64,000 nt of DNA, taken from assembly GCA_964542785.1 (NCBI GenBank), contig CAZIUK010000001.1:69115-133114 (forward strand), read 5' to 3'. This stretch comes from an uncultured Planctomycetales bacterium. GTDB taxonomy: Bacteria; Omnitrophota; Gorgyraeia; Gygaellales; Profunditerraquicolaceae. Positions 4,436 to 60,131 of this stretch are shown here, piece by piece. The notes beneath the pieces are model-generated. The model had not been told where the DNA came from. It was given only the letters and a program-made list of their open reading frames with translations, and did no database searches. The number at the start of each line of letters is the position of its first letter. Positions within the stretch are counted from its first letter, which is position 1. Both the position numbers and the translations under genes were made by a program.

Positions 4436-5300
4436 AGTAATAGCACTTTTGGTTTCCTTTTTCTTTTTATTTTTCTCTGACACCTTCGCCTCTTTCTCTT
4501 CTGAAGTTCCGCTACAGCAGATAAGTGATTTTTCTTTATCTGGGTATGAGGATAAAGGAAGAAAGAGTTGGGATATATCAGGTAAGTCAGCGGATGTTTT
4601 TACAGAGGTGGTAAAGTTAAAAGATATAAGTGGGAATCTGTATGCAGAAGGTGAAAATGTTAATCTTACTGCAAGAAAAGGTGATTTTAATAAGAGTGAA
4701 GATAAGGTCTATTTAGAGGATAATGTGGTAATTACTACCTCTAAAGGTGCTAAACTTACTACTGATTCTATGGATTGGGACAGGAAGAATAAATTAGTCA
4801 CCACAGAGGATAAAGTAAATATTAATAGGGATAATATAAATATTTCCGGGATAGGGGCTTTGGGAGAGCCTAATCTTAACAAGGTTTCTTTAAATAAAGA
4901 TATAAGGGTAGATATCAGTCCTTTACCAACAGAAATCATTACGGATGACTTAAGCAAAGGCAAGGTCTTTATCACCTGCGATGGGCCCCTTGAGGTTGAT
5001 TATGATAAGAATACAGCTATATTTTATAATAACGTTAGGGTGGAAAGGCAGGATATTATAATTTATAGCGATAGGATGGAGGCTTTCTTTGCTATGGATA
5101 GAAACGAAGTGAAAAAAACGGAAGGACTCCAAGAGCCTATAGCTGGGAGCATAGAGATTATAGTAGCCAAAGGCAATGTAAGGATAATCCGCGGGGATAA
5201 TATCTCTTATAGCGATGAAGCTGTGTATAATGCTAAAGATAAGAAGATAATATTAAACGGCAAGCCTCGGTTAGTTTTTTATTCTAAGGAAGAGTTTTAA
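4425..5300 (+). CDS. membrane-anchored periplasmic LPS-transport protein of the LptC/LptA (OstA-like beta-jellyroll) family, possibly an LptC-LptA fusion
   Basis: N-terminal TM anchor (VIALLVSFFFLFFS). Two consecutive OstA-like segments follow (..KLKDISGNLYAEGEN.. and ..NNVRVERQDIIIYSDRMEAF..AKGNVRII..). Sits between kdsC and lptB, where lptC-lptA normally are. Confidence 0.6.
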   Translation: MSVRVIALLVSFFFLFFSDTFASFSSEVPLQQISDFSLSGYEDKGRKSWDISGKSADVFTEVVKLKDISGNLYAEGENVNLTARKGDFNKSEDKVYLEDNVVITTSKGAKLTTDSMDWDRKNKLVTTEDKVNINRDNINISGIGALGEPNLNKVSLNKDIRVDISPLPTEIITDDLSKGKVFITCDGPLEVDYDKNTAIFYNNVRVERQDIIIYSDRMEAFFAMDRNEVKKTEGLQEPIAGSIEIIVAKGNVRIIRGDNISYSDEAVYNAKDKKIILNGKPRLVFYSKEEF

Positions 5301-5303
5301 AAG

Positions 5304-6026
5304 ATGCATCTTTTAGAGATTAAAGGTTTAAGTAAATCTTATAACGATAGAGAGGTTGTCTGTGGCGTTGATATCTTAGTTAAGCGCGGCGAGATCGTAG
5401 GGCTCTTGGGTCCTAATGGCGCAGGAAAGACTACTACCTTTTACATGGTCGTAGGTATTATCTCCCCTAACCGTGGTAGGATAGTATTTGACAATTATGA
5501 TATTACTAACCTCCCCATTCATGAGCGTTGTCGTTTTGGGATAAGCTATCTTTCACAGGAAGCGTCTATATTTAGGAAGTTGACGGTTGAAGAGAACATA
5601 ATGGCGATACTAGAGACTCTTCCCATAGGAAGAAGGGAGAGGTTTAGAAGACTGGATAACCTTCTTAATGAGTTAAATATAGCGCATTTAAGGAAGAATA
5701 AATCTTACACCCTTTCGGGGGGAGAAAGGCGGAGGCTTGAGATTACTCGGGCATTGGTCACTAACCCTTCTTTTATACTTTTAGATGAGCCTTTTTCCGG
5801 GATAGATCCGATTGTGGTTAACGAGGCTCAGGAGATTATAAAGGAGCTTAAAGATAAAGGTTTAGGAATACTTTTAACTGATCATAATGTAAGGGAGACC
5901 TTGTCTATTACTGATAGGGCATATCTTATAGCTGAAGGAAAGATCCTTATCTCTGGTACAGCAGATGAACTTATTAAAAATAGCAAGGCAAGGCAAGTTT
6001 ACTTAGGGGAAAAATTCAGAATGTAA
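5304..6026 (+). CDS. lptB: LPS export ABC transporter ATP-binding protein
   Basis: Walker [10 protein letters not shown], signature [11 protein letters not shown], Walker B ILLDEP. 240 aa. Confidence 0.88.
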
Positions 6027-6045
6027 TTTTTAATGAAAGGAAAAG

Positions 6046-6924
6046 ATGAAGATTGAGGTAAAAAAAATTGATGGTAATATAAGGGAGATTAACATTGAGG
6101 TAGGCGCTGATATCGTAGAGAAGAAATTTGACGATGTTTTTAAGCGTATTTCACAGGAGGCTAAGGTGCCAGGATTTAGGCCTGGGCATGCTCCAAGGGA
6201 TATTATAGAAAAGAAGTTTGGTACCCTTGCCAATGAAGAGGTTTTAAAAGAACTTATCCCTGATGTTTATAACCAGGCAATTAATAGGGAGAGGTTGGAT
6301 GTTGTTGAACTTCCGCAGGTTTCTGATGTAAAATTAAGCCGCAACAACCTTTCTTTTAAGGCAAAGGTAGAGGTGATGCCCGAGATTAACCTAAAAGATT
6401 ACAAGGGTATAAAGATTAATTATAAGAATATAAAGGTTTCTTCTGACGAGGTTAAACGCAATATAGACTCGTTTAAAGAGGCGCGCAAGATCGAAAGTTT
6501 AGATGATAATTTAGCAAGGTCTTTAGGGTATCCTACACTTTTAGAGTTAGAGGGTGTTTTAGAAAAACAAATCTATTTAAATAAGGAGTCTGCTCAAAGG
6601 CAGGATTTAGAGAATCAGATAGTTGAAAATCTGCTTAAGGGTGTAGAGTTTAGTTTGCCGCAATCTATGGTCAAGCGTCAGCAGGAGGATATGCTCAGAC
6701 AGGCTAAATTAGATTTAGCCTTAAAAGGCATTCAGCGTGAAAAGATAGAGGGCCAACAAGAGAAGATGCTTAAGGATCTTGAGCCTGAGGCGAAAAGGCA
6801 GGTTAAAGTTTATTTGATATTATCCTCAATAGCTAAAAGAGAGAATATTCCGGTAGATGAACATATGCCGCGCAAGACAATGGAGTTTTTATTAAAAGAG
6901 GCGGACTGGAAGATAGCGGATTAA
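6046..6924 (+). CDS. tig: trigger factor, short form lacking the central FKBP-type PPIase domain
   Basis: N-terminal ribosome-binding signature GFRPGHAPR (the GFRxGxxP motif). The arm/C-terminal chaperone region follows directly. Only 292 aa, against about 430 for canonical TF. clpP lies immediately downstream, as in the canonical tig-clpP arrangement. Confidence 0.75.
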   Translation: MKIEVKKIDGNIREINIEVGADIVEKKFDDVFKRISQEAKVPGFRPGHAPRDIIEKKFGTLANEEVLKELIPDVYNQAINRERLDVVELPQVSDVKLSRNNLSFKAKVEVMPEINLKDYKGIKINYKNIKVSSDEVKRNIDSFKEARKIESLDDNLARSLGYPTLLELEGVLEKQIYLNKESAQRQDLENQIVENLLKGVEFSLPQSMVKRQQEDMLRQAKLDLALKGIQREKIEGQQEKMLKDLEPEAKRQVKVYLILSSIAKRENIPVDEHMPRKTMEFLLKEADWKIAD

Positions 6925-13638: not shown

Positions 13639-14010
13639 ATGGAAGGTTTTTTAAAAAATAGGCCTGTTTTTTTATTATTAATAATAAGCCTCTTTCTTTT
13701 AGTGGCCAATATTGCCTCTTGTTTTAATCTATATAGTCAGAGTTCTTACCGGAGAAAAGAGATGGCAGGGCGCTTAGAAGCCGAAGAGAAGGTAGCAAAG
13801 CTTTTTATTGATAAGGCATCTTTAGCAGGAAAATTAAAAGAAATAGAAAGAGAACTAGAGCAGGAGAGGGCATCCCTAGAGGCAGTTAAAAAGGATTTGC
13901 TTCAGGAGCAGTTAGTATGTCAATCCCTTAAAGAAGATTTGCAAAAAGCCGTTAAATTAAAAGAGGGCCTTGAGGGGGAATTAAAAAAGACTTTAAAAGC
14001 AAACAAATAA
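13639..14010 (+). CDS. small membrane-anchored coiled-coil protein (FtsB/DivIC-like architecture), function unknown
   Basis: One N-terminal TM helix followed by about 90 aa of heptad-rich, charged coiled coil. 123 aa. Confidence 0.4.
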   Translation: MEGFLKNRPVFLLLIISLFLLVANIASCFNLYSQSSYRRKEMAGRLEAEEKVAKLFIDKASLAGKLKEIERELEQERASLEAVKKDLLQEQLVCQSLKEDLQKAVKLKEGLEGELKKTLKANK

Positions 14011-30626: not shown

Positions 30627-31160
30627 ATGAGACTCCTTATTCATATTTGCTGTGGGCCTTGCCTTATTCATCCTTTAGAAGTATTGAATCTTAAAGGTTT
30701 TAAGGTATTTGGGCTATTCTACAACCCTAATATCCATCCTTTTCTTGAGTATAATCAAAGAAAGGATGTGTTATCTAAGGCAGGTTTTGATATAGATTTA
30801 ATTTTTTCCGAATACCTTCCGCAGGAATTTTTTAGGGTGTTAAGTTTTAAAGAAGACGTTCCTGTAAGATGTTTAGCATGTTGGAGGTTAAGGCTTAAAA
30901 AAACAGCCGCAATAGCTAAGCTTAATGGTTTTGATTATTTTACTACAACACTTTTAGCAAGCCCTTATCAGGACCATCAGGCGTTAAAAAGAATCGGTGA
31001 TGAAGTATCCAGGGAAGAAGAAGTTAAGTTTTATTACCTTGATTTCAGGCCCGGTTTTAGAAAGGCGCATGAAGAAGCTAGGGCTAAAGGTTTATACATG
31101 CAGAAATACTGCGGTTGTATTTATTCAGAAATAGAAAGGTATACTAAGAAAAATAAATGA
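30627..31160 (+). CDS. queH: epoxyqueuosine reductase QueH (DUF208 family)
   Basis: LLIHICCGPC N-terminal Cys motif and the C-terminal CGC of QueH. 177 aa. Same co-directional block as queA and tgt. Confidence 0.8.
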   Translation: MRLLIHICCGPCLIHPLEVLNLKGFKVFGLFYNPNIHPFLEYNQRKDVLSKAGFDIDLIFSEYLPQEFFRVLSFKEDVPVRCLACWRLRLKKTAAIAKLNGFDYFTTTLLASPYQDHQALKRIGDEVSREEEVKFYYLDFRPGFRKAHEEARAKGLYMQKYCGCIYSEIERYTKKNK

Positions 31161-32338
31161 AAAGAAGGGCATTCTTATTCAGGGTATTTATTTTAGCTTT
31201 ATTTTTAGTTGTCTCTTTAGGTTTATTTACTCCTTCTTTCTCAGGGAGCGTTCCTAAAGGTGTATGGGTAAGCGTGTTTTCAGTAAATAAAGTCCTTTAT
31301 TCTAAGGAGGCGGTAAAGAAGCTTATCTTGCTTTGTAAGGAGGCAAAAATAAGCCATATATATCTGCAAGTCTATCAATCAGGTCAGGCTTATTATGATA
31401 CTAAGGAGTTTAGTCGTTTAAAGTATGAAGAAATTTTGAAGATTTCAGGGGAGGATACAATAGATTTTTTATTAAAAGAAGCCAAGGCAAACGATATCCA
31501 GGTTTTTGCTTGGATTAACTTATTAAGTCTAGGGAATAATTTGAATGCGGATATAATAAAGAAGTTTGGCAAAGATGTTTTAACTAAAGACCGGTACCTA
31601 AGGCCTTCTGGAAGGGGGGAGTCTAATGACTCCGATAAGTATTATTTGAGGGAAGAGCTTTTGTTTTTAGAGCCGGGAGATCAGAGAGTGGTAAAATTTT
31701 TAACTTCTCTTGTAGAAGAGCTCGTAGATAGATACCCTTCATTTAGTGGTGTTCATCTTGATTACACGCGTTATCCGATGACAGTTCCGTTTATCCCGGG
31801 TTCAAGGTTTACTAACTATGGCTTAAGTTATGGTTATGGAGTTAAGAATATGGAGAGATTTAAGGATTGGGCGCGGCTTGATCCGCTTACGGGATTAAAT
31901 ACGCCTAAGGATTATATGCTTTGGGATGATTGGCGAAGAAACCAAATAACCGCCTTGGTAAGAAGTATAGCTAAGAGCGTAAAAGAAAGATCTAAAGAGT
32001 TGTTAGTCTCTTCTGCGGTAGTAGCTTCTTCAGAGAGGGCTTATTCAAGCTTATTTCAAGATTGGCCGTTATGGCTTGAAGAAGGAATATTAGACTATGT
32101 TGTAATTATGAATTATACGATTGACAATCGGCTCGCTAAAGAATTAACCTTAGCGTCTTTGGCCTTAAAGGCAAAGGGGAAGGTTTTTATAGGTTTAGGA
32201 TTATATTTGATGAAGGAGAACGTAAATGTCTTTATATCGCAATATAAGGCTATAGAAGCCCTTAGCCCCGATGGAATAGTAATATTCTCTTACGATGATA
32301 TAACAGATAGCCTTGTTAAATGCTTAAGCACTTCTTAG
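31157..32338 (+). CDS. secreted/lipoprotein glycoside-hydrolase-like family 10 (GHL10/DUF4015-like TIM barrel) protein
   Basis: N-terminal signal/TM segment, then a TIM-barrel-like region with an HLDYTRYP-type motif characteristic of the GHL10/YngK-like family. Sits between queH and queA. Confidence 0.5.
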   Translation: MKRRAFLFRVFILALFLVVSLGLFTPSFSGSVPKGVWVSVFSVNKVLYSKEAVKKLILLCKEAKISHIYLQVYQSGQAYYDTKEFSRLKYEEILKISGEDTIDFLLKEAKANDIQVFAWINLLSLGNNLNADIIKKFGKDVLTKDRYLRPSGRGESNDSDKYYLREELLFLEPGDQRVVKFLTSLVEELVDRYPSFSGVHLDYTRYPMTVPFIPGSRFTNYGLSYGYGVKNMERFKDWARLDPLTGLNTPKDYMLWDDWRRNQITALVRSIAKSVKERSKELLVSSAVVASSERAYSSLFQDWPLWLEEGILDYVVIMNYTIDNRLAKELTLASLALKAKGKVFIGLGLYLMKENVNVFISQYKAIEALSPDGIVIFSYDDITDSLVKCLSTS

Positions 32339-32359
32339 CCTTCCGGTATTAAATACATA

Positions 32360-33349
32360 ATGAAGCTTTCAACCTTTGATTATTCTTTACCCGTAGATTT
32401 GATTGCGCAGTATCCTTTAAAGGAGCGCACTTTGGCTAAGCTTTTGGTAGTTGACCGCAAGAACAAGAGTATATTGCATAAGGATTTTAAGGATTTTGTA
32501 ACTCTTCTTAATAAAGGCGAGCTTCTCCTCCTTAATGATACGCGCGTGCTTACTTGTCGTTTAACCGGACGCAAGGCAACCGGAGGCAAGGTAGAGGTAT
32601 TGTTAATTAAACGCAAAGATGGCAGTAGGTTTGAGGCTTTAATCCAGCCTAGTCGTACAAAGATAGGGGAGAGGATATTTTTTCCCCCAATGGAGGTCGT
32701 GGGGGTGGTAACTTCTTTTAAGGAGGTATCTTTTAAAAAGAAGGATGCGGATAATATCTACCAATTTGGTCAGGTCCCGCTTCCTCCGTATATAAAAAGA
32801 GCGCCCGAAGAGTTAGATAAAGATTATTATCAAACAGTTTATGCTAAAAAAGATGGTGCAATTGCTTCTCCTACGGCAGGCTTGCATTTTACTCATCAGA
32901 TGCTTAAAGAGATAGAGTCTTTAGGGATAGATATAGCCTACCTTACTCTGCATGTAGGGTTGGGTACATTTAAACCGGTTAGAACTGATGATATAACTAA
33001 GCATAATATGGACCCGGAGTATTTTAAGATCCCTAAAATCACTCAGGAGAAGATTAAAGCGGCTAAGGCTTCTAAAAAAAGGATTATAGCGGTAGGGACG
33101 ACTTCTTTAAGGGCATTAGAGGCATATGCAGCAGGATTAAGCGAAGGTTTTACTAATCTATTTATTTACCCGGGATTTAAATTTAAGCTTGCTGATTGTT
33201 TGCTTACTAATTTTCATTTACCTAAGACCACGCTTTTTATGCTGGTATCCGCTTTTGCCAAAGAAGATTTAATCAAAAAGTCCTACAAGGAGGCGATAGA
33301 TAACCGCTATAGATTTTATAGTTACGGCGATGCAATGTTTATAATGTAG
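32360..33349 (+). CDS. queA: S-adenosylmethionine:tRNA ribosyltransferase-isomerase
   Basis: KLSTFDYSLPVDLIAQYPL N-terminus and the GTTSxRALE motif. 329 aa. Confidence 0.92.
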   Translation: MKLSTFDYSLPVDLIAQYPLKERTLAKLLVVDRKNKSILHKDFKDFVTLLNKGELLLLNDTRVLTCRLTGRKATGGKVEVLLIKRKDGSRFEALIQPSRTKIGERIFFPPMEVVGVVTSFKEVSFKKKDADNIYQFGQVPLPPYIKRAPEELDKDYYQTVYAKKDGAIASPTAGLHFTHQMLKEIESLGIDIAYLTLHVGLGTFKPVRTDDITKHNMDPEYFKIPKITQEKIKAAKASKKRIIAVGTTSLRALEAYAAGLSEGFTNLFIYPGFKFKLADCLLTNFHLPKTTLFMLVSAFAKEDLIKKSYKEAIDNRYRFYSYGDAMFIM

Positions 33350-34480
<1,131 letters not shown>

Positions 34481-34483
34481 CAA

Positions 34484-35179
34484 ATGAGGATAGATATAAT
34501 AACTATATTTCCAAGGATGTTTGATTGTGTCTTAAATGAGTCTATAATGAAGCGCGCGCAGGCTAAAAGAAAGGTGAAGTTTTATATTCATGATTTAAGA
34601 GACTATACGCAAGATAAGCATAGAAAGGTTGACGACCGCCCTTTTGGGGGGGGATCAGGCATGGTTATGCGCCCTGAACCGATATTTAATTGTGTTGAGA
34701 AGATAAAATCTAAAATAAAAAGAGCTAAGGTTATACTCTTCTCTGTGCAGGGGCAGGTATTTAATCAGGCTTCTGCTAAAAAGTTTGCTGAGCTTAAGAA
34801 TTTTATACTTATTTGTGGGCATTATGAGGGAGTGGATGAAAGGGTTAGAAGTTATTTAGTTGATGAAGAGGTCTCTATAGGGGATTATATTTTAACCGGA
34901 GGAGAGTTGCCGGCAATGACCTTTATAGACGCGGTAGTAAGGTTATTGCCGGGGGTGTTGGGAGACAAAAATTCCTTGAATTTTGAGTCTTTTGAAGGTA
35001 ATCTATTAGAATATCCGCATTATACTAGGCCGGCTAACTATAAAAATATGAGTGTCCCCAAGGTTCTACTTTCCGGAGACCATAAAAAAATCAGCTTTTG
35101 GAGGAAGAAAGAATCTATTAGGGTGACGGCGGAGCGCAGGCCCGATCTTTTTAAAAAACAAGTTAAGGAGGAGAAATGA
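34484..35179 (+). CDS. trmD: tRNA (guanine37-N1)-methyltransferase
   Basis: [14 protein letters not shown] start and SPOUT knot motifs. 231 aa. Upstream of rplS as usual. Confidence 0.92.
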
Positions 35180-35523
35180 ACAAGGTTAATTTAGAGAAAT
35201 TGTTATTTGTTAAAAAAGAGCATCCTGCATTTAATGTGGGAGATACCATAAAGGTATTTACTAGGATACCTGAAGGCCCGGACAAATTTCGCCTCCATCC
35301 TTTTGAAGGGGTAGTTATCGCAAGGGAGGGTAAGGGGGTTAGTGAGCATTTTACGATTAGAAAGGTCTCTTATGGCGAGGGGATTGAAAGGGTCTTTCCG
35401 CTTAATTCTCCTAGTATTGAGCGTATAGAGGTTATCCGTTTAGGCAAGGTAAGACGGGCAAAGCTCTACTATTTAAGGGGAAAATTCGGCAAACGCGCCA
35501 CTAAGATAGCAAGTAAAGAATAA
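35176..35523 (+). CDS. rplS: 50S ribosomal protein L19
   Basis: 115 aa. FNVGDTIKV...[11 protein letters not shown]. Follows trmD. Confidence 0.92.
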
Positions 35524-35535
35524 ACTTTACCTGCT

Positions 35536-36138
35536 ATGCTCTATTACGAGCGCAGACTCAAGCGTTTAGGGTATAAGTTTATTATAGGGGTGGATGAGGC
35601 TGGTAGGGGGCCTTTGGCCGGCCCGGTAGTAGCTGCCGCGGTATTGCTAAAGAAGCATACCTTTAGAAATATTATTAATGATTCAAAAGTATTAACACCT
35701 TTAGCAAGGGGTAAGGCTTTTACGGAGATTAAAAAGCACTCTTTAATTGGTGTAGGGATTGTAGGTGAAAAGGTAATAGACAAGATTAATATTCTTAAAG
35801 CTACACACCTTGCTATTCAAAAGGCAGTGCGTTCCTTGATAAAGAAGTTAAGTAAGGTAAATACGAATAAGGCTTATATTATTATTGACGGGAATATGTC
35901 TTTAAATCTGCCATTGCCATATCTATCTATTATCCGGGGGGATGCTAAGTCTAAGAGTATAGCTGCTGCTTCTATTATTGCTAAGGTTACAAGGGATAGG
36001 ATAATGCTTGCTTATGATCGCATTTATCCTGAATACGGATTTAAGGCGCATAAGGGTTATCCTACAAAAGAACATAAAGAAATGCTAAAGAGGTTAGGGC
36101 CTTTGTCTGTACACAGGAGAAGTTTTTTAGATGGCTAA
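35536..36138 (+). CDS. rnhB: ribonuclease HII
   Basis: IIGVDEAGRGPLAGPVVAAAV catalytic motif. 200 aa. Confidence 0.92.
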   Translation: MLYYERRLKRLGYKFIIGVDEAGRGPLAGPVVAAAVLLKKHTFRNIINDSKVLTPLARGKAFTEIKKHSLIGVGIVGEKVIDKINILKATHLAIQKAVRSLIKKLSKVNTNKAYIIIDGNMSLNLPLPYLSIIRGDAKSKSIAAASIIAKVTRDRIMLAYDRIYPEYGFKAHKGYPTKEHKEMLKRLGPLSVHRRSFLDG

Positions 36139-36511
36139 AGAAGAATTAAACCTTGGTAAAAACGGTGAGGACTTAGCGGTAGGATTTATTAAGGGTAAGG
36201 GGTATAAAATAATAGCGCGAAGGTATAAAGTTAAGTTTGGGGAGATAGATATAGTAGCATTAGATAAAGATACTTTATGTTTTATAGAAGTAAAATCCCG
36301 TAGGAGCAGTAGGTTTGGTTTAGCAAAAGAAGCTGTCTCTTCTTTAAAGCAGAGGAGGATATCCAAGGTAGCTCTAAATTTTCTTAAAGAAAATTCTCTG
36401 TTAAAGGAAAAGGCGAGGTTTGATGTAGTTTCTGTAGATTTTTCTTCTGCTCCTTTTAAGATAAATTTAATTAAAGACGCCTTTGAGCTTAGTAGCGGTT
36501 TTAATTACTAA
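36131..36511 (+). CDS. yraN: YraN/UPF0102-family endonuclease
   Basis: GEIDIVALD....FIEVKSR motif. 126 aa. Conserved rnhB-yraN pairing. Confidence 0.8.
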   Translation: MAKEELNLGKNGEDLAVGFIKGKGYKIIARRYKVKFGEIDIVALDKDTLCFIEVKSRRSSRFGLAKEAVSSLKQRRISKVALNFLKENSLLKEKARFDVVSVDFSSAPFKINLIKDAFELSSGFNY

Positions 36512-36515
36512 AAAT

Positions 36516-37076
36516 ATGTATAAAGATAAAACCCTTGAGGATTATATTAAAGAGCTTTCATCTAGGCTCCCTGTTCCGGGGGGAGGGTCTGCCGCCGCAT
36601 TATGCGCTGCTATGGCTGCAGCCTTAATGAGTATGGTGATAAATTTTACCTTAGGTAATCCTAAGTTTGTAAAGCATGAGAGCAAGTTAAAAGAGGCTTT
36701 AAGCCAAAGCGAGCGGTTTAGAAAAGAATTTATACGTTTAGTTGATTTAGACGCGGTTGCCTATAAATCTAAAAATATAAGGGATGCGGTGAAAGTGCCT
36801 TTTATGGTTGCTAGGTTCTGTTTTGAAGGGATAAAGTTGGCTTCTTCGCTTACAAAGAAGAGTAACCCTAAATTAATAAGCGATCTTGCTATTGCGGCAG
36901 CTCTTTTTGAAGCAGGGTTCTTCTCTTCCGTTTTTAATATTAAGATTAATTTAAAGAGTTTAGATGATAAGGTGTTTTCTCGTGCTATTAATTCTGAGAT
37001 TAGTAAAAAATCAGCAGTAGTTAGAAAAATAAGGCTTAAGATGGAGGGGGATTTTGGCAACATTATTAGAGGGTAG
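36516..37076 (+). CDS. formiminotransferase-cyclodeaminase C-domain-like protein, probably methenyl-THF cyclohydrolase (FchA-like)
   Basis: PVPGGGSAAALCAAMAAALMSMV motif of the FTCD_C / cyclodeaminase-cyclohydrolase family. The track ORF begins at a TTG (36483) overlapping yraN, so the ATG at 36516 is preferred. Overlaps folD. Confidence 0.65.
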   Translation: MYKDKTLEDYIKELSSRLPVPGGGSAAALCAAMAAALMSMVINFTLGNPKFVKHESKLKEALSQSERFRKEFIRLVDLDAVAYKSKNIRDAVKVPFMVARFCFEGIKLASSLTKKSNPKLISDLAIAAALFEAGFFSSVFNIKINLKSLDDKVFSRAINSEISKKSAVVRKIRLKMEGDFGNIIRG

Positions 37077-37923
37077 GTTAATCGCAGAGAGGATAAAAGA
37101 AGATTTAAGAGGGCGTATCTTTTCCTTAAAAGTAAAGCCTGTTTTAGCGAGTATTATTGTCGGAGAAAATTTAAGCTCGCAAAGCTATCTTAACGCCCAG
37201 TCTAAACTTGCCCGGGAGTTAGGGATTGAATACCAACCTTATAATTTGTCTCTTTCTACTACCGAGAGAGGCCTCTTGGATTTTATAGGCGAATTAAATT
37301 TAAATAAATCTATAAACGGAATTATCTTGCAAAGCCCGCTGCCCGAAGATATTAATTATAAAAAGGCAGTGGCTTCTATTGATTTGGTTAAGGATGTTGA
37401 GGGTATGCATCCTGATAATTTAGGTAAAATTATGCTCGGGGAAAAGAGTGTTCTTCCATGCACGCCTGCTGCAGTTATGGAATTAATTGCAGGAAGCAAT
37501 ATAGATTTATACGGTAAAGAGGTAGTTATCGTTGGGCATAGCCGGATAATAGGCAGGCCATTAGCGCTTTTATTGTTACAAAAGATGGCTACTGTTGCAG
37601 TATGCCATATAGCCACAAGCGAATCCGGAAGGCTTAAAGAGCATGTTAGTAGGGCAGAGGTATTAGTCTCTTCCGCGGGTATCCCTAATTTAATTAAAGG
37701 GGATTGGGTTAAAGAGGGCTCTGTAGTAATAGATGTGGGGATTAATCGGGTAAAAGATAGAACCGTAGGAGACGTGGAATTTGATAGCGCAGAAAAAAGA
37801 GCTTCTTTTATTACGCCGGTTCCCGGGGGCGTTGGGCCTTTAACCGTTACTATGCTTATGCGTAATTTAGTTGAGGCAACAATTATACAAGAACGTTCTA
37901 GGGAAGAGAAGCGGGGAATATAA
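37054..37923 (+). CDS. folD: bifunctional 5,10-methylene-THF dehydrogenase / 5,10-methenyl-THF cyclohydrolase
   Basis: IIVGENLSSQSY, PCTPAAVMEL, and GHSRIIGRPLALLL Rossmann motifs. TTG start. 289 aa. Confidence 0.9.
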   Translation: MATLLEGRLIAERIKEDLRGRIFSLKVKPVLASIIVGENLSSQSYLNAQSKLARELGIEYQPYNLSLSTTERGLLDFIGELNLNKSINGIILQSPLPEDINYKKAVASIDLVKDVEGMHPDNLGKIMLGEKSVLPCTPAAVMELIAGSNIDLYGKEVVIVGHSRIIGRPLALLLLQKMATVAVCHIATSESGRLKEHVSRAEVLVSSAGIPNLIKGDWVKEGSVVIDVGINRVKDRTVGDVEFDSAEKRASFITPVPGGVGPLTVTMLMRNLVEATIIQERSREEKRGI

Positions 37924-38793
37924 ATGAGTTTTAGAGAAAAATTACATTCAGGAAAGTTTATAGTAACCTCTGAGGTTGGTCCACCTAAGGGTATAGAGAC
38001 TAAGCAGATAATTGAGGAGGCTGAGCTTATCCGTGACAGGGTTGATGCCTTTAATGTAACTGACCTGCAGAGTTCTGTTTTGCGGTTAGGTTCATTAGCA
38101 GTTTCGCGCATCTTAAGAGAAAAGGGGCTTGAGCCGATATATCAATTAACCTGTCGTGACCGTAATCGCTTGGCATTGCAGTCAGACCTTTTGTCCGCGG
38201 CAGCTTTAGGCATAGAAAATATTTTGATATTGACCGGAGATTATACTACAGCAGGAGACCACCCAGAAGCTAAGCCGGTGTTTGATTTAGACTCAGTACA
38301 ACTGCTTCAGGCGGCAAGCATGCTTGAAAACGGGTCTGATTTAAAAGGCAATAGGTTAACCGGAAAACATCCGGATTTTTGTTTAGGAGCTGTAGTTAAT
38401 CCGGGGGCAGACCCTTTAGAGCCAGAGATTATAAAGATGGAAAAAAAGATATCTGCAGGGGCAGAATTCTTTCAGACTCAGGCGGTTTATGACCTTAAGG
38501 TTTTTGAAGATTTTTTAAAGAAGGCAAGGCATCTTAATACTAAGATTTTAGCAGGAATAGTTATTTTAAAGTCAGCAGCCATGGCTAAGTATATGAACGA
38601 AAATGTAGCCGGGGTTGTGGTCCCTGAAATTTTAATAAAAGAGATGGAGGGGGCTACGGATAAAAGAGCTAAGGCTATAGAGATAGCCTCAAGCCTTATA
38701 AAAAAGCTAAGGCCGATGTGCGACGGAGTGCATATTATGCCTATCGGCTTAGGGAGACTATTGCCTGAAATCTTAGACGCTTGCGGGTTATGA
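37924..38793 (+). CDS. metF: 5,10-methylenetetrahydrofolate reductase (MetF family)
   Basis: MTHFR TIM-barrel pattern (FIVTSEVGPPKG, ...CRDRNRLALQSDLLSAAALGIENILILTGD...). 289 aa. Immediately follows folD with no gap. Confidence 0.8.
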   Translation: MSFREKLHSGKFIVTSEVGPPKGIETKQIIEEAELIRDRVDAFNVTDLQSSVLRLGSLAVSRILREKGLEPIYQLTCRDRNRLALQSDLLSAAALGIENILILTGDYTTAGDHPEAKPVFDLDSVQLLQAASMLENGSDLKGNRLTGKHPDFCLGAVVNPGADPLEPEIIKMEKKISAGAEFFQTQAVYDLKVFEDFLKKARHLNTKILAGIVILKSAAMAKYMNENVAGVVVPEILIKEMEGATDKRAKAIEIASSLIKKLRPMCDGVHIMPIGLGRLLPEILDACGL

Positions 38794-39674
38794 TGGGTAA
38801 TGTAGTTATTATAGGAGCTTCAGCATCGGGACATAATATCGCCTTAGGGTTAAAGGATAAGCATAGGGATTGTAATGTAGCTTTACTTAGCCAAGAAGAT
38901 TATCCTTCCTATGACCATTTAAAGATACCAGATTTAATAAGCGGAATAGTAAAAGAAAAAGATATATTTTTATGCGACGAGGATTTTTATCAGAAAGCAG
39001 GAATTAATTTTTTAAAGAATAAAAAAGTATCCGGTATAAATACGGAAAAGTCTTTAGTATATTTTAAGGATAGAGGGAGTATTAATTATGACATTTTAGT
39101 TATTGCTTCTGGTAGAAGCCCTGTTATCCCGGATATACCCGGGGCTAGAAAAGTAGGCGCTTATCGTTTATATACCTTAGATGATACTAAAGAGTTTCTT
39201 AAGCGTTTTATAGCACATCCGGTATGTATAGTTGGCTTAAATAGCCTGGCCTTAAAAGTTGCAGAAGCGATAATGGATAGGTACGCAGTAGAGGTTAAAA
39301 TTTTAAGTTCTCTTACGCTTGCTTATTCAGATTTGCCTGGAAAGATAGAGGTTATCTGCGATTCTTTAGTTGAGGTTATTGGCGAAGGAGAGGTGCAGGC
39401 AATAAAGCTTAAGAGCGGTAAAGCCTTAGGGGTATGCGCAGTTTTATTTATGGATAATTATAAATCAAATATTGATTTTTTAAAGAATACAGAGGTATTG
39501 GTTAAGGATGATTTTATAGTAGTTGATAAAAATATGGCTACTAATTACGATAATATCTTTGCCTGCGGAAGCGTTGTAGGCAAGAAGAGCGTATCTTTAA
39601 GCTTGAACTTGGTGGATAGTATAATTAGTAGGTTAGGAAGAGAAGATGCTAGTAGAGTCGTTACAAGCTTCTGA
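38781..39674 (+). CDS. pyridine-nucleotide-disulfide-oxidoreductase-like flavoprotein homologue, short, with degenerate dinucleotide-binding motifs
   Basis: Overall Nox/CoA-disulfide-reductase-like pattern ending in the FAD motif NIFACGSV. Both Gly-rich loops are non-canonical (VVIIGASASGHN and CIVGLNSLALKVA). There is no C-terminal dimerisation domain. Overlaps metF by 13 nt and the ACS-like gene by 29 nt. Confidence 0.55.
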   Translation: MRVMMGNVVIIGASASGHNIALGLKDKHRDCNVALLSQEDYPSYDHLKIPDLISGIVKEKDIFLCDEDFYQKAGINFLKNKKVSGINTEKSLVYFKDRGSINYDILVIASGRSPVIPDIPGARKVGAYRLYTLDDTKEFLKRFIAHPVCIVGLNSLALKVAEAIMDRYAVEVKILSSLTLAYSDLPGKIEVICDSLVEVIGEGEVQAIKLKSGKALGVCAVLFMDNYKSNIDFLKNTEVLVKDDFIVVDKNMATNYDNIFACGSVVGKKSVSLSLNLVDSIISRLGREDASRVVTSF

Positions 39675-41799
39675 AACAAATTTAAGCAATGCTTTAAACT
39701 TAGTTCGTCAAGCCTTAAAGAGTTCAATAGATAGGTTTGGTTTAGCTAAAAAAGTAAGCCCCCCCGGGACAGATTATTTCCTCCCTTTAATCTACGCTTT
39801 CTTAAAAATTAAAGTTGAGAGTTTAGGCGATTTAAGGGTTATTTTAGAGAAGATAGATAACCAGAGCCATTCTTCTTATCCGCAGGATCATTTAAATGAG
39901 GCGGCTTTATTCCTCTTATGTCAGGAGGTATTGGCTTTTTTAGAAGAATTGAATAAGGGTTTTTCTTTAAGGGGAACGGGTTTCATACCGGATATTACTT
40001 TACGTAATTTGGCTATCAGAATTATAGATGGGCGCATATCCGGAGTAGGGGTTATCTTTGGGGAAGTTAAGAGGAAGGATTTAGTTTTAGATATTATACG
40101 GGAATTATATTCAAAAGGTATTTTATCTTTGATTGTCGGAAGCATAAGCAGAAAAGATTTATTTTGCCGGTTTAAAAAAAATAATTTAAAGGAGAATTTT
40201 GAAAATCTCGTCTTTTTTTTAGGCGAGGATTTTTATTCTGTAATACATGCTTTTAATTTTATTATAAGAATTCCGTGGATTTACGGCAATCTTTCTCCGT
40301 GGGAATTAAGCAGGGTAAAGGATTATATACGCAAGCATATTCCGTTGTTTGCCCTCTTTCTGGGCGAGGGCAAAGAGCCTGATTTAGGGCTATTATCGGC
40401 TTGTACGGTATTTGATTTACCGCTGATAAGCGATTCAGCTTTAAGTAACCAAGAAAGATTAGGGCCATATTTGCCTCCTACTATTTTAATCCAACCGGAT
40501 TATAAAAAAATGCCTCTTCAATGTATGCAGTTTAGTTCCTTGAAGGCAAAAGGACTGTCTTTAGATTTTCCTCTTCCTTATTCTGACCTTTTTGAAGGTG
40601 AGAGAGTGGGGGAAGATGATTTGGGTTTTAAGTTTGGGGGAGCAGAAGGGGCTTCTTTTGAGCTTTTAACCTCTTGTAAGGAGAGTGAATTAGAGGATGG
40701 CGTTATTGAATTATACGGCCCTGATATCGATAAAGATTTACTAGGGAGGAAGGATTTGTCTTTGGCTTTGATTGTGGATGTCTATGGAAATAAGATAGAA
40801 AAGGATTTTGAGCCTGTGCTGGAGCGTCAGATACATAGATTTATCAACTATGCTTTTGGCTTAGAGCATCAGGGGCAGAGGGATATGAATTCTTTTAGAA
40901 TAAGCTATAAGGCCTTCTTAAAAGGGTTTAGGTTAAGGCACTTAGGTTTGATTGTATATTCTATGCTTCATAAGGAGTATAAAGGCATCATAGAGAAAGC
41001 CAGGGTAAGGCTTTATACTCGGAAAGAGGATGTCCGGGATAAACTTACCATGGCAAGAAGGGTTTTTTCTGAAAGGGATGAGCGTTTAAACGGACTCTTA
41101 GATGAAGAGGTGGATAATTATTACTCCTGTTCTATTTGTCAATCTGTCTCTCCTAATCATATTTGTATTATATCCCCACAGCGTCCGGGGATGTGCGGAG
41201 CATACTCTTGGTTAGATGCTAAAGTATCGTCTGAGGTTGTTCCTTATGGTTGGAATAACCCCATTCCTAAGGAAAGGGCCCTAAATAGTTCTTTGGGGCA
41301 ATGGGAGGGTGTTAATAAGTTTATTGCGGACAAAACAAATAGCATTATAAAAGAAGCAAGCCTTTACTCTATTACGCATACTCCTTTGTCAACGTCAGGA
41401 TTATTTGAATGTGTTCTTGCGGTTCTTCCGGAAACAAACGGGGTGATTGCAGTAGATAGGAATTATACTGGGATGACTCCTCTGGGGATGGATTTTTCTA
41501 CCCTTTCTGATTTAGCTAAAAGCATTCCTCCTAACCCAGGGTTTATGGGTATATCGAGAAAATATATATTAAGCGGTAAATTTATTTTAGCAGAAGGAGG
41601 GTTAAGGCGTTTGGTGTGGGTATCTAAGGAACTAAAGCTATTGCTTGGAAAGAGCTTAAGAAAAATAGCTTATGACATAGGCGAGCCTACCCTATTAGAA
41701 AAGATTGCTGACGAAGATATCGCCTCTACCCTTAAACCCCTATTAGATTTTCTTAGGAAGGTTAAACACCCGGCTCTTTATATGAGCCTTTTATTATAA
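39646..41799 (+). CDS. acetyl-CoA synthase (AcsB/CdhC) homologue that keeps the [4Fe-4S] Cys quartet but lacks the Ni-binding Cys-Gly-Cys motif
   Basis: 717 aa. C-terminal third carries ACS blocks (VLERQIHRFINYAFGLEHQGQRD, YSCSICQSVSPNHICIISPQRPGMCGAYSWLDAK, GMTPLGMDFSTLSDL, PGFMGISRKYILSGKFILAEGGLRRLVWVSKELK, KIADEDIAST...HPALYM). Cys495/498/507/517 have C-x2-C-x8-C-x9-C spacing. At residues 584-586, 67 residues after the fourth Cys, the sequence is S-G-L (nt 41395..41403) where canonical ACS has C-G-C. Confidence 0.7.
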   Translation: MLVESLQASETNLSNALNLVRQALKSSIDRFGLAKKVSPPGTDYFLPLIYAFLKIKVESLGDLRVILEKIDNQSHSSYPQDHLNEAALFLLCQEVLAFLEELNKGFSLRGTGFIPDITLRNLAIRIIDGRISGVGVIFGEVKRKDLVLDIIRELYSKGILSLIVGSISRKDLFCRFKKNNLKENFENLVFFLGEDFYSVIHAFNFIIRIPWIYGNLSPWELSRVKDYIRKHIPLFALFLGEGKEPDLGLLSACTVFDLPLISDSALSNQERLGPYLPPTILIQPDYKKMPLQCMQFSSLKAKGLSLDFPLPYSDLFEGERVGEDDLGFKFGGAEGASFELLTSCKESELEDGVIELYGPDIDKDLLGRKDLSLALIVDVYGNKIEKDFEPVLERQIHRFINYAFGLEHQGQRDMNSFRISYKAFLKGFRLRHLGLIVYSMLHKEYKGIIEKARVRLYTRKEDVRDKLTMARRVFSERDERLNGLLDEEVDNYYSCSICQSVSPNHICIISPQRPGMCGAYSWLDAKVSSEVVPYGWNNPIPKERALNSSLGQWEGVNKFIADKTNSIIKEASLYSITHTPLSTSGLFECVLAVLPETNGVIAVDRNYTGMTPLGMDFSTLSDLAKSIPPNPGFMGISRKYILSGKFILAEGGLRRLVWVSKELKLLLGKSLRKIAYDIGEPTLLEKIADEDIASTLKPLLDFLRKVKHPALYMSLLL

Positions 41800-41822
41800 T
41801 TTATATTATTCTAATTTTTCTC

Positions 41823-41866
41823 TTGACGTATATGTTTTCTTTTATATAATAAAAGAAAACATATAC
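41823..41866 (+). promoter_or_regulatory. perfect 18-bp-stem palindrome overlapping a sigma70-like promoter (candidate operator/promoter; weak candidate terminator)
   Basis: TTGACG (41823-41828), 16 nt, TATAAT (41845-41850). Inverted repeat GTATATGTTTTCTTTTAT / ATAAAAGAAAACATATAC (41828-41845 and 41849-41866) with a 3-nt loop. No following T-run. Confidence 0.5.
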
Positions 41867-41890: not shown

Positions 41891-42631
41891 TTGAAAAAAG
41901 CAATTTTAATTTTAATTTTAGGTTTATTTTTATTTGCCCGGGGTTCTTTTGCTTCTTCTCAAGAAGCCATACTCTTAGGTAAACAGGGAGATTTGACTCT
42001 CCTAGAGGCTCAGGCACGTGAATACCGCCAAGAGGGCTTAAAGGCGCAAGATGCAGGTGACTTAGATACGGCAATGAAGATATATCAGAAGGCAATAGAA
42101 GTGGATCCCCTTTATGCAGTAGCATATAATGATTTAGGCGTAGTTTATGAAGCTAAGGGCATGACAAATAGGGCTGAAGAGAGTTATCTTAAGGCCTTAA
42201 AATTAGATCCGTATTATTTAAGTTCCTATACTAATTTAGCCTTTTTATACGAGGAGAGAAGGGAATTCGGCAAGGCTGCTTATTGTTGGAAGAAGCGTTC
42301 AGAATTAGGAGATTTTAACGACCCTTGGACAAAGAAGGCCCAAAAGCGTTTTGAGGATATACGCTTAAGTTTTTCTCAAAATCCGGTAAAAGATTTTAAA
42401 GAACAGGAAATCTTGAAACTAACAAAAGATATCTCTAATGAAAAGTATATATTAAGGCATAATGACAGAGCGCTCTCCCGTAAGCATTTTGAAAATGCCA
42501 AGGCTAGTTATGCAAAAAGCAATTATGCCAAAGCTGTAAAAGAAGCTTTGGATGCCCAGTATTTGGATCCTGAGGATAAGGATATAATGGAGTTTATAGA
42601 AAAGGTTCAGCGCAGGGCATTATCAGAATAG
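41891..42631 (+). CDS. secreted tetratricopeptide-repeat (TPR) protein
   Basis: Signal peptide (ILILILGLFLFARGSFASS). At least three TPR units (AMKIYQKAIEVDPLYAVAYNDLGVVYEAKG..., EESYLKALKLDPYY...). TTG start in the track, so the true start is uncertain. Confidence 0.6.
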   Translation: MKKAILILILGLFLFARGSFASSQEAILLGKQGDLTLLEAQAREYRQEGLKAQDAGDLDTAMKIYQKAIEVDPLYAVAYNDLGVVYEAKGMTNRAEESYLKALKLDPYYLSSYTNLAFLYEERREFGKAAYCWKKRSELGDFNDPWTKKAQKRFEDIRLSFSQNPVKDFKEQEILKLTKDISNEKYILRHNDRALSRKHFENAKASYAKSNYAKAVKEALDAQYLDPEDKDIMEFIEKVQRRALSE

Positions 42632-48451: not shown

Positions 48452-48488
48452 TCGATAATCTATGAACGGAAAGAAGGAGGAGTAAGAG

Positions 48489-48689
48489 ATGAAGGATAAA
48501 ATACATCCTAACTATAAAGAATCTACCATAGTTTGCGCTTGTGGCGAGACCATACATACCCGCTCCACGCGCCCGAGTATCAGGGTAGAGATCTGCTCTA
48601 AATGCCATCCATTTTTTACAGGAAAACAGAAGTTTGTGGATTCTGCTGGCAGAGTAGATAAGTTTATTAAGAAATACGGTAAAAGATAA
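48489..48689 (+). CDS. rpmE: 50S ribosomal protein L31 (zinc-ribbon type)
   Basis: 66 aa. KIHPNY...CACGE...[10 protein letters not shown]. Confidence 0.9.
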
Positions 48690-48717
48690 TCCCAAGCTCA
48701 TCTGATATAGCTAAGAG

Positions 48718-59378: not shown

Positions 59379-59780
59379 ATGAAAAAGGAGAAAAGAAAGA
59401 CAAGGCGTGAAATTAACTGTAATGAGTGCAAGACTCAGTCTGACTGCTGTAGGTTTGGGGCTTGGATTGACTTAGAAGAGGCAAAAAAGATAATATCCGC
59501 CGGTATTAAGGGGGATTTTTTTCATTTAGAGAAAGATAAGAGTTTTCCTTCAGGATTTAGGATAGGCACTAGCATAGAGGATAATCCTTGTGTTTTTTTG
59601 GATAAAGACGGTTTATGCCGCATACACAAATACGATTATTCGCTTAAGCCCGTAACCTGTAAAGAGTTTCCTTATGAAAATGGAAGGATCTCTTCGTTTG
59701 CCGATGTTTTATGTACCCTTTATAGGAATAGGATTAGAAGAAGAACTAGAAATAAAAAAAGAAGGGTTTTGAAAAAGTAA
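59379..59780 (+). CDS. YkgJ/UPF0153-family Cys-cluster (putative Fe-S or zinc) protein with an Arg/Lys-rich tail
   Basis: CNECKTQSDCCRF ... CVFLDKDGLCRIHKY ... CKEFP pattern matches the CxxCxxCC family. 133 aa. Confidence 0.55.
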   Translation: MKKEKRKTRREINCNECKTQSDCCRFGAWIDLEEAKKIISAGIKGDFFHLEKDKSFPSGFRIGTSIEDNPCVFLDKDGLCRIHKYDYSLKPVTCKEFPYENGRISSFADVLCTLYRNRIRRRTRNKKRRVLKK

Positions 59781-59807: not shown

Positions 59808-60131
59808 ATGGAATTTAATAGTATAAAAGAAGAAGTAAAGAAGATACCCTTTGAGTCTTTACGTACTGATTGCGATAACTACTTTGAAGGAGTGTTGCTT
59901 AAAGAGGAAATCTTTAAGCTAAATGAAAGATTGAAAAGCTTTTTTGGAGACCCTGCCTGGCCCTCAAAAAATAGGTTGGCCTACCATGCCCAAGAAGCAA
60001 TAAGTAGTTTCGGCGGTATTATGCTCGGGCAAACCCTTTATTTTAAAAGAGAAGGAAGCAGCGCTTTATTTGCCATGCTCTGGCCTTGGAAGGATGGTTT
60101 GCGCACCACAGTTAAGATAATCCAAAGATAG
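59808..60131 (+). CDS. hypothetical protein (107 aa), no recognisable family
   Basis: Intact ORF with plausible spacing between neighbours. Assigned only by ORF integrity and context. Confidence 0.35.
   Translation: MEFNSIKEEVKKIPFESLRTDCDNYFEGVLLKEEIFKLNERLKSFFGDPAWPSKNRLAYHAQEAISSFGGIMLGQTLYFKREGSSALFAMLWPWKDGLRTTVKIIQR

Follow-up and report, generated by a model that had tools for sequence, protein, structure and literature searches.

What might an acetyl-CoA synthase (ACS) that has lost its nickel site be doing at the end of a run of tetrahydrofolate (THF) genes? The question is raised by a locus in a 64,000-nt stretch of DNA (contig CAZIUK010000001.1 of assembly GCA_964542785.1, positions 69,115-133,114 of the forward strand; hereafter the window) from an uncultured, ultra-small Planctomycetales bacterium, which is placed by GTDB in Omnitrophota; Gorgyraeia; Gygaellales; Profunditerraquicolaceae. 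Five consecutive genes are concerned, namely fchA, folD, metF, a gene for a truncated homologue of the pyridine-nucleotide-disulfide oxidoreductases (PNDR-like) and an acsB homologue. The Wood-Ljungdahl pathway has ACS as its signature enzyme, and metagenome-assembled genomes (MAGs) in which ACS is found are routinely called acetogenic or carbon-fixing. Seymour et al. 2023 (PMC10066038) use the acsABCDE genes for such pathway calls in Omnitrophota. The evidence assembled below suggests that the THF genes are working ones and that the acsB homologue next to them encodes a pseudo-ACS, dead as a catalyst but retained.

The AcsB homologue, its clade and its ancestral locus

The AcsB homologue matches the ACS of C. 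hydrogenoformans over residues 23-716 (E = 1e-148, phmmer search of PDB), and scores 673.5 bits against the NCBIfam model NF040764, which is below the equivalog cut-off of 800. Comparison of its AlphaFold2 model with ACS using Foldseek gave TM-scores of 0.83-0.85 for the N-domain and 0.94 for the C-subdomain, and the protein is accordingly predicted to retain the ACS fold; the model is of moderate quality (predicted local distance difference test, pLDDT, 71.6; predicted TM-score, pTM, 0.43), and the site geometry was not judged from it on account of the low confidence in the cluster-binding loops (residues 483-586). With bacterial AcsB (M. thermoacetica, PDB: 1OAO/1MJG; the monomeric C. hydrogenoformans enzyme, PDB: 1RU3) the homologue shares the three-domain architecture and fold, alignable from end to end, and the four [4Fe-4S] cysteines, which are kept as C-x2-C-x8-C-x9-C (CSICQSVSPNHICIISPQRPGMC) and are invariant in 123 of 123 aligned sequences. 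It differs from bacterial AcsB in its sub-threshold NCBIfam score, its far faster evolution, the lack of any nearby gene for carbon monoxide dehydrogenase (CODH), the corrinoid iron-sulfur protein (CFeSP) or AcsE, and, above all, its active site.

In M. thermoacetica numbering, which is used here for all ACS residues, the Ni_p/Ni_d ligands Cys595-Gly596-Cys597 align to Ser-Gly-Leu (C595S, C597L), so that the claim of an ACS homologue without a Ni site, made earlier from the letters alone (the sequence-only reading), holds residue by residue. The CO alcove, experimentally defined as G145, I146, V149, F229 and F512, is required for productive CO binding (PMC11321310). At these positions the 116 intact sequences have G (116), L/I, V (115), Y/F and F (116), whereas the window protein has A, I, I, Y and V, placing three of the five residues outside the intact states (G145A, codon at 40012; V149I, 40024; F512V, 41146), with F229Y (40282) falling within them. 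Given the established structure and mechanism of the A-cluster, the loss of the Ni ligands together with alcove residues leads us to infer that the protein would be unable to make or cleave acetyl-CoA. In the searchable open-access literature, the coverage of which is incomplete, no report of a natural ACS homologue without the Cys-Gly-Cys site was found. The Ni-less AcsB would represent a new variant within a familiar enzyme family, from a phylum that has received little study.

Three residues past the Ni motif, the AcsB proteins of Omnitrophota have a conserved cysteine (CGC-F-E-C; 41404-41412 in the window), where the C. hydrogenoformans enzyme has F-E-A. That the window protein is still an acetyl-CoA synthase, with a metal site assembled from other ligands such as this cysteine, is extremely unlikely: the F-E-C cysteine is conserved in Omnitrophota, and the cubane and the bridging Cys509 are retained, but both Ni_p/Ni_d thiolates are gone, F512 and the alcove are altered, and the same cysteine is equally present in the intact enzymes, and hence is not compensatory. 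The collapse in sequence constraint described below likewise argues that the old function has gone.

A census of the motif in the 120 best homologues, of which all those with a source name belong to Candidatus Omnitrophota, recovered CGC in 114, SGL in 2, CGF in 2, and SSL and CGL in 1 each. The SGL forms are the window protein and P0002 (64% identity), SSL is found in P0003, CGF in P0004 and P0020, and CGL in P0061; CGC is present in the 116 sequences outside the eroded clade and also in P0005 within it. In a neighbor-joining tree the degenerate forms nest as ((((SGL, SGL), SSL), CGF), CGF), beside P0005, with root-to-tip distances of 0.90-1.20 as against 0.72 ± 0.03 for the intact forms. P0005 (717 aa, on a 6.3-kb JGI contig) keeps CGC and has an altered alcove (G145V, I146F, F512L), and might represent a possible first step in the erosion of the active site. 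Taken together, the sequences show that the loss of the Ni site is confined to one small clade, and that it was recent and stepwise, proceeding from the alcove to CGF and then to SSL/SGL. The CGL form, P0061, has a ~850-aa architecture and intact forms as its nearest neighbours in the tree, and probably lost its site independently. As synteny is constant throughout, the loss of function can be dated against the neighbouring genes.

The labels attached to these proteins are uneven. P0002 (MFY9402294.1, WAQ07_02645) is a 'hypothetical protein' at NCBI, where its intact relatives are named acetyl-CoA decarbonylase/synthase subunit alpha/beta, and a fragment of the window protein is a 'CO dehydrogenase/acetyl-CoA synthase beta subunit' at JGI. 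Since the names of the SGL-type protein and the fragment differ between the two resources, pathway calls would differ by pipeline. A clade with a Ni-less AcsB would be mis-scored by KEGG- or Pfam-based pipelines, and the motif series CGC to CGF/CGL to SSL/SGL would offer a simple annotation filter.

The loci of eight relatives share a common order, queA-(…)-tgt-trmD-rplS-rnhB-yraN-[fhs]-fchA-folD-metF-[PNDR]-acsB-TPR-polA-glgA-coaE-rho-rpmE-prfA-prmC-aroA, and in none of them does a gene for CODH, CFeSP, AcsE or CooC/AcsF lie within 10 kb of acsB. Most of the relatives have an intact, CGC-type AcsB in the same slot, likewise without adjacent CODH/CFeSP genes. The nearest relative of the window locus, recovered by a scan of genome contigs, is the locus of the P0002 MAG (JBASUY01), while a scan of metagenome contigs yielded one CGC-type locus and two distant ones. 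This conserved order shows the fchA-folD-metF-PNDR-acsB block to be an ancestral, phylum-wide Omnitrophota locus and the ACS-like gene of the window to be the positional orthologue of the canonical Omnitrophota AcsB. The physical linkage of the THF genes with ACS, reported from the window by the sequence-only reading, is thus real there and extends to related genomes; the suggestion of a remodelled C1 module falls, as the same locus with an intact CGC-type AcsB is conserved across Omnitrophota. Also borne out is the absence of certain partners: Pfam assignments and synteny revealed no CODH (acsA/cooS), CFeSP (acsC/acsD), acsE, cooC/acsF, formate-THF ligase (fhs) or metV gene among the open reading frames (ORFs) of the 64-kb window.

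The same positional orthology makes it very unlikely that the window copy is a simple divergent paralogue, redundant and drifting in a genome that has a canonical CODH/ACS cluster with a CGC-type AcsB elsewhere, a scenario that had been raised earlier. Some Omnitrophota do encode CooS together with AcsB-E (PMC10066038), but the window copy sits in the exact slot of the intact AcsB in all the other Omnitrophota loci compared, and the Ni-less forms nest within the intact orthologues in the tree. A weak further argument is that no second protein from the window or P0002 genomes was recognised among the 120 best homologues.

The canonical form of the locus is typified by P0007/L004, P0012/L006 (GCA_026387335.1), P0120/L007 and P0089/L008, which have the gene order, the overlaps, the Y-x-x-x-Q version of FolD and the degenerate PNDR-like partner in common with the window. 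It differs in that its AcsB has CGC, F512 and an unaltered alcove and ranks with the most conserved proteins of the locus; further, some versions add fhs (L008), and some have a PNDR-like protein fused, or truncated, onto AcsB. It corresponds to the 'partial' Wood-Ljungdahl pathway, without AcsA/CooS, that Seymour et al. 2023 (PMC10066038) describe for many Velamenicoccia and Gorgyraia. In L008 fhs lies at 4716-6410, between yraN and fchA, and in L004 and L005 a gene with a NYN domain is inserted between folD and metF (7474-8085 in L004). On the whole, the block would represent the Omnitrophota version of the Wood-Ljungdahl methyl-branch/ACS locus, set in a long, compact, co-directional housekeeping array.

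Two better-studied systems offer further comparisons. Dehalococcoides mccartyi has a CODH-less ACS and an incomplete Wood-Ljungdahl pathway that is reversed to supply methyl groups (Zhuang et al. 2014, as cited in PMC9324843); work on its core-MetE is found in PMC7005905. There, too, ACS occurs without a CODH that is adjacent or encoded, and its link is with the metabolism of methyl groups and methionine, not with autotrophy. However, the ACS of Dehalococcoides is described as a catalytically active enzyme that acts together with CFeSP, and the organism lacks MetF, whereas the window locus has MetF and an ACS predicted to be unable to bind Ni. The clostridial Wood-Ljungdahl cluster, fhs-fchA-folD-metV-metF-lpdA-…-acsB (PMC5039349), similarly has separate fchA and folD genes, followed by metF and then by a PNDR-family gene, clustered with acsB; in contrast, the window locus is without metV, acsCDE, acsA and cooC, and its PNDR-like gene is not an orthologue of lpdA.

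Constraint on the Ni-less protein and divergence of its N-terminal two-thirds

Among intact lineages AcsB is 77-83% identical, as compared with 59-60% for polA, 62-69% for glgA and 56-71% for queA. Between the window and L001, by contrast, AcsB is 64% identical and the other genes of the locus 81-97%, and between the window and the CGF-type locus L003 the corresponding values are 54% and 66-81%. The constraint on AcsB has thus flipped: within the locus it ranks with the best-conserved genes when intact and is the least conserved one when Ni-less. The loss of the Ni site would have released the protein from strong constraint, above all in its N-terminal and middle domains. In canonical ACS it is these domains that bind CODH, house the CO tunnel and shift position in the course of catalysis. 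Of the positions at least 80% conserved in intact ACS, 116/199 are replaced in the N-domain, 38/119 in the middle domain and 63/175 in the C-domain.

The two parts of the protein have fared differently. In comparison with L001, the C-terminal domain (residues 466-717) has 86% amino-acid identity, a dS of 0.41-0.53 and a dN/dS ratio (ω) of 0.13-0.20, while the N-terminal and middle domains (1-465) have 52% identity without indels, a dN of 0.35, a dS of at least 1.1 and an ω of ~0.24-0.38, a ratio that rests on a near-saturated dS. In the latter part the identities at codon positions 1, 2 and 3 are 0.71, 0.71 and 0.49; positions 1 and 2, where changes alter the amino acid, are thus still better conserved than position 3. 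The recent amino-acid variants within the 90% clusters, five independent ones, all fall in residues 1-300, in the N-domain. Hence, purifying selection continues on the cubane domain, while the enzymatic constraint has been lost and that on the N-terminal and middle domains has collapsed. With an ORF of 717 codons free of stops and indels in P0001-P0004, ω below 1, a conserved cubane domain and a retained fold, the homologue is not a plain pseudogene.

For these reasons a young pseudogene in a reductive genome, that is a functionless ORF that has not yet been disrupted, is an unlikely explanation. It would accord with the missing catalytic residues and eroded alcove, the fall of AcsB from among the most to the least conserved gene of the locus, the replacement of 58% of the conserved N-domain positions, the clustering of the recent variants in that domain and the reduced genomes of Omnitrophota (PMC10066038). 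On the other side, the ORF is undisrupted in at least four Ni-less lineages that have diverged by up to ~55% at the amino-acid level, codon positions 1 and 2 are the better kept, the C-domain shows a low ω, and the cubane cysteines are invariant; moreover, a genome with 98.6% coding density should delete dead DNA quickly. In having lost its catalytic ligands and kept its fold, ORF and a measure of purifying selection, the protein resembles pseudoenzymes in general. At present it would be a pseudoenzyme, namely a scaffold that binds [4Fe-4S] and has a residual role independent of Ni, probably played together with the PNDR-like protein, and the carbonyl branch would be vestigial. If the retained cubane domain does have a Ni-independent function, this would constitute a new activity for the ACS fold.

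The divergence of the N-terminal two-thirds has a further peculiarity. Nucleotide identity between the window and L001 is ~0.9 over 22 kb, but drops, without gaps, to 0.54-0.74 at ~39,550-41,040 and recovers to 0.83-0.90 past ~41,040. This island (39550-41040, against 9905-11395 of L001) sets in sharply, very nearly at the start codon of acsB, and dies away before the gene ends. Four-fold degenerate sites, counted in codons with a conserved amino acid and with saturation at ~70%, differ at 283/1301 positions (21.8%) in the 13 flanking genes, at 44/75 (58.7%, p = 3e-11 versus the flanks) in ACS codons 1-465 and at 32/90 (35.6%, p = 0.004) in codons 466-717. Relaxed selection was therefore rejected as a full account of the divergence of ACS, as it cannot raise synonymous divergence above the neutral level of the flanks (59% as against 22%). 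The N-domain of the window protein is 45% identical to that of L001 and 46% to that of the SSL lineage, where polA is 92% and 72% identical, respectively, and the N-domains of P0001, P0002 and P0003 are mutually ~45% identical. Exclusive shared-derived residues, counted for the pairings window+L001, window+P0003 and L001+P0003, number 28, 5 and 0 in the C-domain, 19, 12 and 14 in the N-domain, and 4, 6 and 6 in the middle domain. The signal in the N-terminal segment is thus star-like.

These data weigh against a pseudo-ACS that has simply been retained under weakened selection: the synonymous sites of the N-terminal two-thirds are 2-3 times as diverged as the flanks, and the phylogeny of the segment conflicts with that of the C-domain and the flanks, neither of which is explained by relaxed constraint. 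The near-saturated dS beneath the ω of this part counts on the same side, as does the origin of all the compared sequences in MAGs or metagenome contigs. The simplest reading of the island is that, in at least one of the genomes, homologous recombination brought in the 5' two-thirds of the gene from a more distant Ni-less lineage that has not been sampled, or else that divergent alleles have persisted; no donor for the segment was found among the 120 closest homologues. Local hypermutation may be an alternative source of the island, and so may long-lived polymorphism.

Saturated synonymous sites, absence of indels, the ACS fold and a star-like phylogeny form the signature expected of exchanged or long-maintained alleles. 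Such a signature is usual in genes of conflict or partner recognition. One could conceive of the Ni-less ACS not as a relic but as a recruited protein, in which the N-terminal two-thirds have become a recombining, highly polymorphic module. We consider this distinctly improbable; if true, ultra-small and possibly host-dependent Omnitrophota would have turned an ancient carbon-fixation enzyme into a [4Fe-4S] scaffold that diversifies rapidly and has taken on a new role alongside the phylum-specific, PNDR-like partner.

The tetrahydrofolate genes and the PNDR-like partner

The identities proposed for the five genes from the letters alone are borne out by their Pfam domains. An NCBIfam search agrees with Pfam on the families, with none of the five proteins reaching an equivalog cut-off. 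FchA (FTCD_C, 152 bits; NCBIfam FchA, 122 bits, under the cut-off of 275) has as its best solved relative the methenyl-THF cyclohydrolase 7vg4 (E = 5e-26); its products in the relatives are 186 aa long, and between the window and L001 it is 81% identical with an ω of 0.23. FolD, the ω of which is 0.25 in the same comparison, has both of its domains (THF_DHG_CYH, 89 bits; THF_DHG_CYH_C, 208 bits) and best matches 3p2o (E = 1e-69) among solved structures. Its sequence YLNAQ (37186-37200) aligns to YVKSK of 3p2o, the cyclohydrolase lysine being replaced by glutamine in a Y-x-x-x-Q motif that recurs in L001, L004, L006 and L007, alongside a separate fchA with a 23-nt overlap. The catalytic lysine is needed for cyclohydrolase but not for dehydrogenase activity, as known from K56 mutants of the human DC301 protein. 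On this basis FolD is probably a dehydrogenase only, which fits the separate FchA gene. The presence of the motif in the window and the relatives checked predicts the same condition across the phylum.

MetF covers profile positions 2-286 of 287 in PF02219 (118 bits). Its best NCBIfam match is to residues 313-587 of PRK08645 (NF006396; 243 bits, no equivalog cut-off reached), making it closest to the C-terminal methylene-THF reductase half of the YitJ-like model for bifunctional homocysteine S-methyltransferase/methylene-THF reductases. It is 93% identical between the window and L001 (ω 0.10), and in every lineage its gene ranks with the best conserved of the locus. All three THF genes are intact and under strong constraint. 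Judging from family membership, FchA, FolD and MetF would convert formyl-/methenyl-THF to methyl-THF for anabolic one-carbon needs.

The PNDR-like protein (Pyr_redox_2, 95 bits) best matches the CoADR, NirB-N and PadH types, and no member of its family is matched by PF00070. In the FAD-binding motif GASASG (38814) the second glycine is replaced by serine, and GD has become GS in FACGS (39558). Relative to 3cgb, the redox-active cysteine is a leucine, and the NAD(P)H-binding GxGxxG is lost, GLNSLA (39234) standing for GGGAIG. The C-terminal dimerisation domain is absent, the protein ending at ~294 aa where its relatives have 385-480 aa. The sequence-only reading had correctly taken this flavoprotein to be degenerate, but the condition is phylum-wide and predates the loss of Ni: the family is essentially confined to Omnitrophota, and all of its homologues there have the degenerate motifs, including those beside an intact AcsB, which indicates that the degeneracy is old. 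A co-decay of the PNDR-like protein with the Ni site was rejected on the same grounds.

Fusions link this protein to AcsB. P0033 and P0089 (1027-1029 aa) have an entire PNDR-like protein as an N-terminal extension of AcsB, and AcsB forms of ~840-868 aa (P0006, P0054, P0061, P0120 and many others) have at the N-terminus only a fragment of it, from the central, formerly NAD-binding subdomain. These fusions suggest a physical association of the PNDR-like protein with AcsB that is being reduced in different ways in different lineages. Fusions of MetF with a PNDR-like protein were looked for and none was found. The PNDR-like protein would thus be a new Omnitrophota-specific AcsB partner, degenerate in its cofactor motifs and repeatedly fused, and the two would form a phylum-specific pair. 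Together with the FolD version that lacks the cyclohydrolase lysine and is paired with FchA, it provides new leads in this phylum.

The persistence of the partners also bears on a neofunctionalised electron-transfer module, a 'moonlighting' use of the ACS scaffold in which the Ni-less AcsB, the PNDR-like protein and the MetV-less MetF would deliver electrons for methylene-THF reduction. The order metF-PNDR-acsB and its stop/start overlaps are kept throughout the phylum, MetF is of the small type that requires a partner in acetogens and the window has no metV, the cubane cysteines do not vary, purifying selection acts on the C-domain, and the PNDR-like protein and MetF have remained constrained after the loss of Ni. 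Nevertheless, the same adjacency occurs with an intact AcsB, where linkage within the canonical pathway explains it; the PNDR-like protein occurs in fusions with AcsB but in none with MetF, lacks the NAD(P)H-binding and redox-cysteine motifs, and is a fragment in many lineages; and a new essential role would not predict AcsB to be the fastest-evolving gene of the locus. We therefore regard such a module as improbable. The reading of AcsB as a retained pseudoenzyme is supported by the fact that its partner genes are not decaying (ω 0.10 for MetF and, in the same comparison with L001, 0.20 for the PNDR-like gene).

Organisation of the locus and of the window

The five genes lie essentially where the sequence-only reading had placed them, with overlapping or abutting ends (Table 1). 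The junctions fchA/folD, folD/metF, metF/PNDR-like and PNDR-like/acsB measure -23, 0, -4 (ATGA) or -13, and -29 nt, respectively; the 23-nt overlap is also found in L004, L006 and L007, and the 29-nt overlap is kept in L001, L003 and L004. The start of fchA is probably the tabulated ATG, with a TTG at 36483 as the alternative upstream. For the PNDR-like gene the start at the TTG 38781, as proposed earlier, does give the longest ORF, but ATG 38790 or 38793 is more likely, and with a start at 38790 the metF stop and the PNDR-like start form the ATGA overlap.

Table 1. Positions in the window of the five genes and of features of the AcsB homologue
Feature	Position	Strand	Basis
fchA, methenyl-THF cyclohydrolase (FTCD_C family)	36516..37076	+	Pfam FTCD_C
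folD, methylene-THF dehydrogenase	37054..37923	+	Pfam THF_DHG_CYH + THF_DHG_CYH_C
metF, small methylene-THF reductase, 289 aa	37924..38793	+	Pfam MTHFR
PNDR-like protein (truncated pyridine-nucleotide-disulfide-oxidoreductase homologue)	38790..39674	+	Pfam Pyr_redox_2
Ni-less AcsB homologue ('pseudo-ACS'), 717 aa	39646..41799	+	Pfam CODH_A_N + CdhC + ACS_CODH_B_C
AcsB homologue, N-terminal + middle domains, residues 1-465, hyper-divergent	39646..41040	+	identity to L001
AcsB homologue, C-terminal (A-cluster) domain, residues 466-717	41041..41799	+	purifying selection
Retained [4Fe-4S] ligand motif CSICQSVSPNHICIISPQRPGMC	41128..41196	+	Cys506/509/518/528 equivalents
Former Ni-binding Cys595-Gly596-Cys597 site, now Ser-Gly-Leu	41395..41403	+	alignment
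Likely 3' boundary of transcription unit	41772..41850	+	hairpin/T-run + sigma-70-like consensus matches

The claim that the block forms one translationally coupled operon needs qualifying. The overlaps are real and are kept in relatives, but they are not distinctive and are the norm in the genome: 42 of the 62 junctions in the window measure 10 nt or less, 23 of them as overlaps and 19 as gaps of 0-10 nt. Nor does the block have a 5' boundary of its own, since the tight co-directional array continues upstream through queA-tgt-trmD-rplS-rnhB-yraN, at least to 30627; the largest gap in 30627-41799 is no more than 21 nt. The only boundary-like feature of the block is the 91-nt gap between acsB and the following TPR gene. 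A weak hairpin and T-run are found at the end of acsB (41772-41788), and among the sigma-70-like matches in the 14 kb scanned the best is TTGACG-16-TATAAT at 41823-41850, inside the gap. These 3' sites are consensus matches only, and in the scan for promoters and terminators the site counts were not above the expectation from shuffled sequence. The 3' end after acsB looks like a transcription-unit boundary.

All 63 real-looking ORFs of at least 100 aa in the window are on the + strand, making it an unusually long, purely co-directional stretch. Genes are separated by a median of 1.5 nt, and coding sequence makes up ~98.6% of the window. GC content is 37-41%, and the GC skew is strongly and uniformly positive, being +0.17 to +0.34 in every 2-kb bin. 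The other genes are of the housekeeping kind, namely kds/lpt, tig, clpP, serA, purA, isoprenoid genes, nusA-infB, ruvB, queA-tgt-trmD-rplS-rnhB, polA, glgA, rho, prfA, aroA, trp, pgi and others.

A Pfam family could be assigned to nearly all window ORFs of at least 100 aa; the two that have no Pfam match (13639-14010, 123 aa; 59808-60131, 107 aa) are on the + strand and conserved-looking, the second coming after a protein with a CxxCxxCC domain at 59379-59780. Between rho and prfA the ORF list leaves its widest 'gap' (266 nt, 48452-48717), which is not truly intergenic, as it holds rpmE (66 aa in L001), which falls below the ORF length threshold. The TPR protein at 41891-42631 has a hydrophobic N-terminus and its own promoter-like site. 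Its gene follows acsB in every Omnitrophota locus examined, and in its N-terminal region the identity to L001 shows a small dip, to 0.75 at 41940-42089.

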